A stretch of DNA of 64,000 bases from Octopus vulgaris (Eukaryota), in the NCBI GenBank assembly GCA_951406725.2, contig OX597820.1, positions 81,592,001 to 81,656,000 of the forward strand, written 5' to 3'. The number at the start of each line of letters is the position of its first letter. Positions within the stretch are counted from its first letter, which is position 1. The position numbers were made by a program, and so were the translations under genes. The notes under the pieces are model-generated. The model did no database searches. It had not been told where the DNA came from and saw only the letters and a program-made list of their open reading frames with translations. Below are positions 36,543 through 37,872 of this stretch, in pieces.

Positions 36543-37872
36543 TTACTTTATTTACATTTGACAACTATTTGTCTTCATTTTGTTTGTTGTTAACACATAT
36601 ATATACCCTCCAGCCTTCATCAGGTGTCTTAGGGAAATTTCGAATCTGGGTTCTCATTCTTAAGGTAATTTTCGATTATTATTATTATTATTATTATTAT
36701 TATTATTATTATTATTATTATTATTATTATTATTATTATTCAGGTAACTGCTTGCTCTTAACCACCACGCCATATACCCGTGGGCAATTATAGAGTGAAG
36801 TTTAGGGCTTATAAATCTAATATTTTCCTATCAGTAACCTGAACAACAACAACAACAACAACAACAACAACAACAACAACAACAACAACAACAACAACAA
36901 CAACAATAATAATAATAATAATAATAATAATAATAATAATAATAATAATATTAATAATAACATCGAAAAATGCCTTAGGAATGAGAACCCAAATTTGAAA
37001 TTTCCCCAAGACACCTGATGAAGGCTGGAGGGTATATCAGCCGAAACTACTAACAAGATGAAGACAAATATCCGTCAAATGTAAATAATATACATAATTC
37101 TTCATCTCTTAAATATAGAACTGTATTATCTAATCAGTACGGAGCCGACATTAGACTTCAATGTAGACATATAGAGAAACTTCATCAAAAACTGGTTGTC
37201 TTTCAAACCATCTAACTTTCTTGTGTAGATGTAGAGACTCAAAGTTAATACCACCTGGCTTGAATATAATGACACCAGTGGATTCATATGAAGTTAGAAA
37301 AGTTGTGGAAGGGGCAGGACATGCCCTCGTCCGTGAGAGGATCCATTACAACCGTTGTAAAAAGCAGCAACTAAATAACGAAATCAAAGAGAGGTTACCT
37401 TCATTACTTAGGAAAATAACCAGAGATGATGATAGAAAGAGAATCCAACAAGATCTAGAAAAGTCTTACAGGAAAGAATTTGAAATGGTGAAGACACGCT
37501 AGATTACGAAGGTCAGAGAATGAAGCTGAATCCGTCACCCACCTGTGAAAGCAGTAATTAATGTAAGTTAGGAAAATATTAGATTTATAAGCCCTAAAAT
37601 TCACTCCATAATTGCCAACGGGCTACTAACCCCAAGATTCCGAGTTCGATTCCAAGCAGTGACCTCAATAATAATAATAATAATTAATTCTTTTATCCTC
37701 AATAATAATAATAATATTAGCAAAAACATCGAAAAATATCTTAGGAATGAGAACCAAGTTCGAAATTTCCCCAAGACACCTGATGAAACGTGTTAATAGC
37801 AAATATTCGTCAAATGTAAATAATGCAAATAATATAAATAATGTACATAATTCCTCATCTCTTAAATATAGA
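36543..37872 (+). mobile_element. Deleted Penelope-like element, family P1: inverted repeat, direct repeat, ORF N-terminus, direct repeat
   Basis: 36543-36830 is inverted relative to 37569-37872; 36838-37122 is direct; ORF 37221-37502 'CRCRDSKLIPPGLNI..AGHALVRERI' resembles the PLE N-terminal region. Confidence 0.78.
37011..37047 (+). ncRNA. Hammerhead core (family P1), 3' strand of stem I lost
   Basis: ACAC-CTGATGA-A-GGCTG-GAGGGTATAT-CAGCC-GAAA-C. Confidence 0.6.

Follow-up and report, generated by a model that had tools for sequence, protein, structure and literature searches.

A Penelope-like element family of octopus with a tRNA-like head inside its pseudo-LTR and an excess of short units

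Background

Short interspersed elements (SINEs) are by definition Pol III RNAs that borrow the enzymes of LINEs. Ohshima and Okada are said to have described the octopus SINEs OR1, OR2 and OK in 1994; OK and 'Twitch' are both names of SINEs, and the schistosome repeat SM-alpha has a tRNA head. A locus of Octopus vulgaris raises the question whether a unit of this kind can also arise inside, and be moved by, a Penelope-like element (PLE). The window analysed here is a stretch of 64,000 nucleotides (assembly GCA_951406725.2, contig OX597820.1, positions 81,592,001 to 81,656,000 of the forward strand), and all coordinates below are window positions. The original prediction, made from the letters of this window, was that repeats around a PLE open reading frame (ORF) combine a tRNA-like head, (AAT)n and a hammerhead ribozyme into a SINE-like, Pol III-driven unit that is still attached to its parent. 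If this is true, a PLE-driven equivalent of SINEs would represent a third kind of partner, and such a parasite could be born in one step, because PLEs begin reverse transcription in RNA just past the terminal repeat. If the head is only a passenger, the element is an otherwise ordinary PLE whose pseudo-LTR is unusual. A PLE family, in which a tRNA-like head is built into the pseudo-LTR and short units are in large excess, is well supported by the results given below, and Pol III-driven short templates, the step that would make a new class, are plausible.

Structure of the two loci

Locus 36548-37875 is an old, dead and internally deleted insertion, with inverted, direct and tailed arms as usual (Table 1). 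One inverted and two direct copies of a single repeat had been predicted around the N-terminus of a PLE ORF, and every feature was found where it had been placed: arm A (minus strand), arm B (plus), which continues into the ORF, and the 3' arm C (plus) are all partial copies of this repeat, surround a coding remnant of 590 nt and together form a single Penelope/Poseidon-type insertion. The likeness between the copies is not due to chance (blastn E-values 1e-47 to 1e-4), and since they are only 76-90% identical across their common unit, the insertion is old. The absence of any complete copy at this locus was likewise confirmed. Copy A as a whole spans 36548-36832 (minus), with CTGATGA at 36623-36617, and lacks the 3' half of stem II as well as GAAA. 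Copy C (37569-37875, plus) has lost the A box through a deletion at 37622 and stem II through one at 37787. Copy B possesses the core, stem II (37023-37042) and GAAAC (37043-37047), the strand 3' of GAAAC being gone through an 11-nt deletion. Neither reverse transcriptase (RT) nor endonuclease is present in the ORF remnant. Target site duplications longer than 5 nt were absent from the flanks of the insertion, as were any longer than 4 nt around the head. Among the public reads, no family carries the junction 37568|37569. Arms A (36830-36832, minus) and C (37569, plus) start at most 2 nt apart within the last ORF codons, and this shared start place is perhaps a trace of the assembly of the insertion.

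The second locus, 300-720, is composed of arms D and E, which abut head to head at the palindrome CCC-AC-GGG just 5' of the head, with a fold-back at 578-579. The hammerhead of arm D shows two G>A changes 3' of GAAAC relative to the read consensus, and the head of arm E occupies 580-654. Neither of the two loci is a head-to-tail array. Opposite-strand joints at the head, comparable with the meeting of D and E (560-597), also occur in a few public reads and contigs. Directly past head E, an unrelated sequence of ~270 bp (721-989) has an (AAT)n run on either side and resembles a further repeat for which AAT arrays are either the target or the cargo.

Table 1. Coordinates of the features at the two loci
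Positions	Strand	Feature	Remarks
300-577	-	Arm D, inverted: head without B box, (AAT)26, near-complete hammerhead, tailed end	
580-720	+	Arm E: complete head (A box 587, B box 632) and (AAT)22	No hammerhead after
36548-36674	-	Copy A, inverted arm: 5' UTR and first ~35 ORF codons, broken hammerhead	Stops at first family 3' end, no tail
36675-36740	-	Copy A: (AAT)22	
36741-36779	-	Copy A, tRNA-like head: A box retained, middle and B box deleted	
36780-36832	-	Copy A: last PLE ORF codons (RKILDL-stop, stop 36811-36809) and 29-nt spacer to head	I19, 94% to 37569-37622
36832-36960	+	Copy B: final ~10 nt of head, then (AAC)21(AAT)18	
36961-37125	+	Copy B, short unit: 20-nt 5' UTR, ATG 36981, hammerhead within ORF	Family 3' ends 37089 and 37125/6
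36981-37568	+	Decayed Penelope/Poseidon-type ORF, N-terminal ~190 codons	Frameshifts near 37047, 37197 and 37525; stops
37008-37047	+	Minimal type I hammerhead: 5' strand of stem I, core CUGAUGA (37015-37021), an unpaired A, stem II of 6 bp with 8-nt loop, GAAAC	
37569-37619	+	Copy C: last ORF codons (stop 37588-37590) and 29-nt spacer	Elsewhere extends upstream into endonuclease C-terminal motif
37620-37666	+	Copy C, tRNA-like head: A box deleted between GGG repeats; B box 37644-37653	
37667-37875	+	Copy C: (AAT)n in degenerate form, 5' UTR, hammerhead lacking stem II	Stops at second family 3' end, tailed

Identity of the parent element

The frame 37167-37499 matched one longer relative, P0001, a protein of Octopus sinensis. 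A search with P0001 produced 2,313 relatives, and three further O. sinensis proteins were encountered among the nine that were looked up; the closest named proteins to the ORF of the element are those of O. sinensis. With tblastn against the window, P0001 gave 78% over 94 aa, P0004 (29-208), P0028 and P0025 matched as well, and homology extended upstream to 37054. Thirteen matches were scanned for domains. RVT_1 was identified in all 11 relatives longer than 740 aa, which were hand-picked among 150 matches, and was above the curated cut-off in 10 of them, while GIY-YIG was weak and below the cut-off in 2 of the 11. Pfam gave no match in the ORF piece of the window, P0001 or P0152, and no Cys-rich linker was seen by eye in an alignment of 8 relatives. 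The O. sinensis proteins, the RVT_1 domains and the tblastn matches bear out the Penelope origin proposed for the locus. The nearest ORF retrieved, that of a 628-aa relative, is 66% identical, a full-length member of the exact family was not retrieved, and the window covers only the N- and C-terminal ends of the ORF. By its structure, its ends and its predicted ribozyme the element is a PLE, and it is the likeness of these two ORF ends, rather than a tree, that points to the Penelope/Poseidon clade.

Comparison of the copies in the window shows pseudo-LTRs in both direct and inverted arrangement. Upstream of 37569, other copies continue into S-I-W-E-P-V-L-R-K, in frame with RKILDL-stop of the window (loose ends before 37569 in 74 contigs of X1 and 53 of X7, the two DNA sets described below). 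This piece matches the last conserved motif of the PLE endonuclease domain of the relatives, and the A box comes after it (55 contigs of X7). The order of the pseudo-LTR is therefore ORF end, 29 nt, A box, B box, (AAT)n, 20 nt, ATG, and the hammerhead in the first codons. The head follows the stop codon of its parent after 29 nt; it is therefore a fixed part of the parent pseudo-LTR and no chance insert. A chance SINE insertion at 36548-37875 was rejected, as copies A and C and the public reads have an identical junction.

The tRNA-like head

The head of arm E is the sole pair of A and B boxes among 19 A-like and 7 B-like matches in the window, which was scanned with patterns for both boxes, and its two boxes are 45 nt apart. 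ARAGORN under relaxed settings (-ps85 or lower) identified a pseudogene cloverleaf at 587-653; with default settings the window head was not called, and Rfam gave no tRNA match to it up to E 10. The tRNA likeness of the single window copy is modest. The head presumably most resembles tRNA-Arg. A blastn search of the head against phage records gave six weak matches (E 2-8), two of them on the T arms of tRNA-Gln, and did not name the source tRNA. At the element as a whole, Rfam returned no hammerhead or tRNA family, with weak chance matches only.

Of the five heads in the window, four are no longer intact. Both inverted arms (A and D) have lost the middle part of theirs, a hint that the RT may skip the tRNA fold or stall there. 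Such behaviour is central to the main rival of the explanation preferred below. According to this rival, the head was captured once and is merely carried along, all short copies are 5'-truncated products made from Pol II transcripts of tandem elements, and the tRNA fold and the CCC-AC-GGG palindrome produce the step in depth at the head by making the RT stall, skip or fold back. It is favored by the missing head middles of arms A and D and by the fold-back at 578-579. The read consensus, in which the B box follows on from the A box (186 and 122 contigs with loose ends before 37619), retains both boxes and argues against it. It is a genuine contender and, on balance, probably not the right account.

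The hammerhead and its overlap with the ORF

The 3' strand of the hammerhead, deleted in copy B, is intact in the family consensus, as read from the loose ends behind 37046/37047 in four of four public runs; a broken consensus, named at the outset as a possible refutation, was not encountered. After GAAAC the consensus continues with GTT and GTGTT, which give a stem I of 4-5 bp, an unpaired A, a stem II of 6 bp and a palindromic ACGU that replaces stem III, again in all four runs. The read consensus and the fold of stem II together contain the features of Penelope/Poseidon-type hammerheads: the unpaired base after the core, G10.1-C11.1, a long stem II and a palindromic 15.2-16.2. By the criteria for minimal, dimer-type hammerheads in the available text of Cervera and de la Pena (2014, PMC4209133), the consensus motif fits a predicted ribozyme of this kind. 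Whole-strand folds of hammerhead, head and tail were not more stable than those of shuffled sequences (z -1.4 to +1.1), a monomer fold being an unfair test for a dimer-type motif. A scan of metagenome contigs with a 21-nt hammerhead motif yielded four unrelated loci, with no more than 21-25 nt in common.

The repeat had been expected to run from the A and B boxes through (AAT)n and the hammerhead to an AT-rich end. This order was found except for its last member: the hammerhead and the 'AT-rich end' together are the first ~50 codons of the ORF, in a frame that passes from ATG 36981 through the hammerhead and is clearest in copy D. The AT-rich end as a non-coding tail was consequently rejected, since the region encodes the N-terminus of the PLE ORF. 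Residues ~10-28 of P0004 resemble the peptide encoded by the hammerhead (SPEEG..V..PK against TPDEG..V..PK), which hints at an overlap of hammerhead and ORF in related families as well. In the read consensus, GGTTCGAA forms a second B-box-like word at 36992-36999, just past the ATG and upstream of the hammerhead. TTTT is absent from 36961-37568, which is not significant (P 0.19-0.25).

Linkage of head and hammerhead in public reads

As a family-wide test, four public runs, comprising two sets of DNA contigs (X1 and X7) and two sets of RNA reads (X23 and X24), were aligned to 36958-37680 at 82% likeness, and 31,254, 14,039, 7,755 and 6,458 records were obtained. The organism label of X23 and X24 holds about one third of the words of the stretch, and their species may differ from that of the window. 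A search of sequencing runs gave five organism labels as holders, with no RNA holder among its entries. Joints between head and hammerhead, from 37673-37680 to 36958-36975, are present in at least 454 reads of X23 and at least 311 of X24 among the matches listed. Set against the 1,164 and 888 reads at 37666, at least 39% and at least 35% of head-end reads among the matches listed join the hammerhead unit; as only ~60% of the 150-nt reads could show this joint by rough geometry, most heads are linked. A further 638 (X23) and 480 (X24) reads carry head sequence as a loose end before 36959, and the link runs via a short (AAT/AAC)n in the read consensus. The proposed linkage of an intact A/B-box head with an intact minimal hammerhead is thus a property of the family. 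The outcome that would have spoken against it, namely heads and hammerheads occurring independently with duplications around the head, was not observed, the two being linked in the reads and the head having no duplication around it.

The same counts bear on an independent tRNA-derived SINE, composed of head and (AAT)n and moved by a LINE, which landed in the PLE spacer or in AAT targets and inflates the depth of the head. Arm E, in which no hammerhead follows the head and its (AAT)22, is what such a SINE would leave, and 1,279 unclassified SINE families are listed for O. vulgaris in the available part of the supplement of PMC13282606. It is nevertheless an improbable explanation of the present units, in view of the joined reads, the lack of a duplication around the head and the position of E as partner arm of an inverted PLE pair; it may be the original route of the head's arrival.

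Depth and ends of the short unit

The depth of the hammerhead bin exceeds that of the ORF body by factors of 427, 611, 462 and 404 in the four runs, and the depth of the B-box bin exceeds that of the ORF-end bin by factors of 4.2, 4.6, 3.7 and 4.3; depth should not be read as copy number here, and the two short pieces are subject to edge effects. From the excess of the short unit, ~280-330 nt from head to 3' end, over the ORF it follows that most copies are short. The original prediction of a SINE-like element attached to its parent is upheld as regards this large excess. It needs changing in one point: the head belongs to the parent pseudo-LTR, so that the unit is not a separate SINE beside a PLE.

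Two 5' steps are found: one falls at (AAT)n, and the other, across the head, is the sharper and removes 73-78% of the depth. The aligned stretch does not contain the A box, and the 5' ends of the head step are therefore placed across the head rather than at a single start base. Upstream sequence is absent from about three quarters of head coverage, 22-27% being retained against ~86% under smooth truncation, a comparison that assumes even loss over ~2.2 kb, with the length assumed from relatives of ~830 aa. An excess of short units and a head coverage of this kind suit a Pol III-started SINE mobilised by Penelope, and also an RT that stalls at the tRNA fold. DNA contigs and RNA reads are concordant on the depth ratios at the head, and depth is nearly flat inside the 3' unit and inside the ORF-end piece. 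The step across the head, the sharpest on the unit, and the flat depth on both sides do not suit a head that is merely carried. That rival draws support from the heavy 5' truncation and inverted arms of PLE insertions in the available text of PMC8557442, and from the similar second step at (AAT)n, where a promoter is unexpected: the ratio of hammerhead to B-box depth is 1.6-2.3, so that about half of the hammerhead coverage is without even the B box.

At the 3' side, loose ends in the RNA runs accumulate behind 37089 (707 and 394) and behind 37125/6 (421 and 353). These two ends, 36 nt apart, correspond to ~+120 and ~+156 of the consensus ORF and lie downstream of the predicted cleavage site by ~50 and ~86 nt. 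The arms in the window halt at the same places, A at the first end, where its terminus coincides with the pile at 37089; C and D reach the second. In the RNA reads, the depth immediately 3' of the predicted cleavage site is 0.91-0.92 of that immediately 5', with no end pile or depth step at the site. Ends so far past the site, together with the lack of a step, indicate that the ribozyme does not set the copy ends. The many copies of the family provide a direct genomic test in this respect, the hammerhead being intact in the consensus yet not defining the ends of copies. Cleavage-defined ends were rejected on these grounds. The expectations that the unit is a ribozyme-defined RNA and that transcript 3' ends map to the cleavage site were not borne out, the piles being at 37089 and 37125/6 instead.

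A retrozyme-type cycle, in which tandem units are cut by dimeric hammerheads into circles and reverse transcribed, would have the cleavage site define the ends. The consensus hammerhead does fit the minimal, dimer-type motif as described in the available text of PMC4209133, and non-LTR retrozymes have been proposed as pseudo-LTR derivatives in the part at hand of a preprint (bioRxiv 10.64898/2026.07.22.740005). With depth almost unchanged across the site, ends well downstream of it, one contig (X1) among the matches listed carrying a tandem-type joint (37123 to 36958), and no head-to-tail array at the loci of the window, such a cycle is very improbable here. Both this cycle and an independent SINE fit worse than a passenger head.

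RNA reads on the stretch make up 0.05-0.06% of all reads, with strand ratios of 1.02 and 1.04, and 86-88% of them pass into unlike flanks. No shared RNA start or end was found in the two apparently unstranded RNA-seq runs, which are an insensitive test. These reads look like passengers of host transcripts that carry dispersed copies and are not indicative of a Pol III RNA; in this respect they agree with a head that is merely carried.

Proposed origin and mobilization of the short unit

In the explanation preferred here, an octopus Penelope/Poseidon-type family acquired a tRNA-derived sequence with an (AAT)n tail, in the short spacer that separates the stop of one ORF from the start of the next. 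The RT/GIY-YIG protein of the element would cut AT-rich DNA and begin cDNA inside uncleaved RNA, at ~+120 or +156 of the ORF. For this step the ends are observed in the present data, and the mechanism is taken from the available part of the work on Anolis Poseidon, in which AT-rich DNA is cut, preferably at 5'-ATT-3', and the RT starts internally on an uncleaved RNA template (PMC11167929). Because the RT start signal is only ~250-300 nt past the A and B boxes, a Pol III transcript of an intact pseudo-LTR would be a complete short template. A SINE-like unit beginning at or near the head would thereby come to outnumber the ORF, the Pol III start being the conjectural part.

The whole explanation, that a captured head together with internal RT start gives rise to a Pol III-started, Penelope-mobilised SINE-like unit, may be credited or doubted with equal reason. 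The same balance applies to its key step, and whether the A and B boxes would drive Pol III to make RNAs that include the RT start signal and act as short templates could go either way. In favor of this explanation are the ORF, the place of the head in the parent, the link between head and hammerhead, the two 3' ends, the depth ratios and the fold-back of locus 300-720 at the start of the head. Against it are the RNA runs without a Pol III start, the equal strands, the half of hammerhead coverage without the B box, the damaged heads with their middle lost in both inverted arms, and the weak tRNA likeness of a single copy. A wider proposal, slightly less probable than even, is that of a PLE-mobilised SINE-like class born inside its parent by way of a Pol III promoter in the pseudo-LTR, whose short RNA would contain the internal RT start signal of the PLE; the unit would thus have become a very abundant octopus repeat and have stayed part of the coding element. 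The same promoter might drive transcription of the coding element too.

Comparison with known systems

The available descriptions of Penelope/Poseidon PLEs (PMC4209133; Poseidon_Ac, Frangieh et al. 2024, PMC11167929; Craig et al. 2021, PMC8557442) agree with the octopus element in the ORF N-terminus of RT and GIY-YIG proteins, a hammerhead that overlaps the ORF start, inverted and direct arms, AT-rich targets, ends that are not set by the ribozyme, two 3' ends 36 nt apart within the ORF, and a tail on a single end. The ORF of Anolis Poseidon begins at stem II (PMC11167929), and the PLE 'tail' of 30-40 nt is optional (PMC8557442) and is tied by Frangieh et al. to two internal RT start sites. 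The octopus element differs in the tRNA-like A/B-box head and (AAT)n inside its pseudo-LTR, a head that was not found in those portions of these descriptions.

With animal non-LTR retrozymes (Cervera and de la Pena 2020, PMC7229834; Li, Clavereau and Pollet 2026 preprint; both as available) it shares short, high-copy hammerhead units, kinship to PLE pseudo-LTRs and the presumed use of PLE enzymes. Retrozymes are described there as tandem arrays and cleavage-defined circles, whereas the octopus units are dispersed, end at RT start sites, and contain ORF codons and a tRNA-like head; no array of tandem hammerhead units is present in the window, and most reads enter unlike flanks. Non-autonomous units derived from pseudo-LTRs are known from the accessible parts of several sources (Li et al. 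2026 preprint; Chlamys derivatives, PMC8557442; a mention in PMC6685494).

The tRNA-derived SINEs, as defined in the available text on SINEBase (PMC3531059), likewise possess a short unit, an A/B-box tRNA-like head and high abundance, and with ~280-330 nt the octopus unit is within their size and autonomy trait (<700 bp, non-autonomous). It differs from them in its 3' part, which comes from a PLE and not a LINE, in its simple repeat, which is internal with no 3' repeat tail, and in its head, which is also present in the autonomous-type parent. On partner and tail it is outside the SINEBase definition, and it may work like a SINE. SM-alpha is described in the accessible part of PMC8490949 as SINE-like with a type I hammerhead, and is in this sense a hammerhead-bearing SINE-like repeat as is the octopus unit. 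OR1 and OR2 are CORE-SINEs by description; in the octopus unit the head goes straight to (AAT)n and PLE sequence and leaves no room for a CORE of ~60 bp. Helenus, Cassandra and Ajax TRIMs (Kojima 2024, PMC10886601, as available) offer a parallel: their terminal repeat contains a Pol III promoter derived from a small RNA, probably via SINE insertion. These are non-autonomous LTR elements, whereas the octopus promoter-like head is in a PLE pseudo-LTR that adjoins a hammerhead and a coding ORF.

In the literature searched, neither a PLE with a tRNA-like pseudo-LTR nor a PLE-mobilised SINE was found; the element may already be named in Repbase, Dfam, SINEBase, the Zenodo library of PMC13282606 or the 1994 octopus SINE paper. 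In their available parts, octopus repeat surveys (PMC13282606, PMC8967140) give high shares of Penelope elements and unclassified SINEs, with no description of the element. The octopus unit could explain part of the unclassified SINE (8.9%) and Penelope (6.8%) fractions of the O. vulgaris assembly given in the accessible Table S1 of PMC13282606.

Other features of the window

A tRNA-Asp(GTC)-like gene or pseudogene, unrelated to the PLE, was identified at 55629-55700 (minus) by Rfam (31 bits) and ARAGORN. At 39404-40366 there is a 480-bp tandem duplication, 99% identical, whose frames resemble by eye fragments of LINE-type reverse transcriptase. Broken frames at 34717-35600 resemble a hAT-type transposase, as seen by eye in the ORF list. 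Two similar sequences at ~47320-47390 (minus) and ~48830-48900 (plus), ~1.5 kb apart and in opposite orientation, each contain a CTGATGA of another family, and this pair possibly represents the ends of a DNA transposon.
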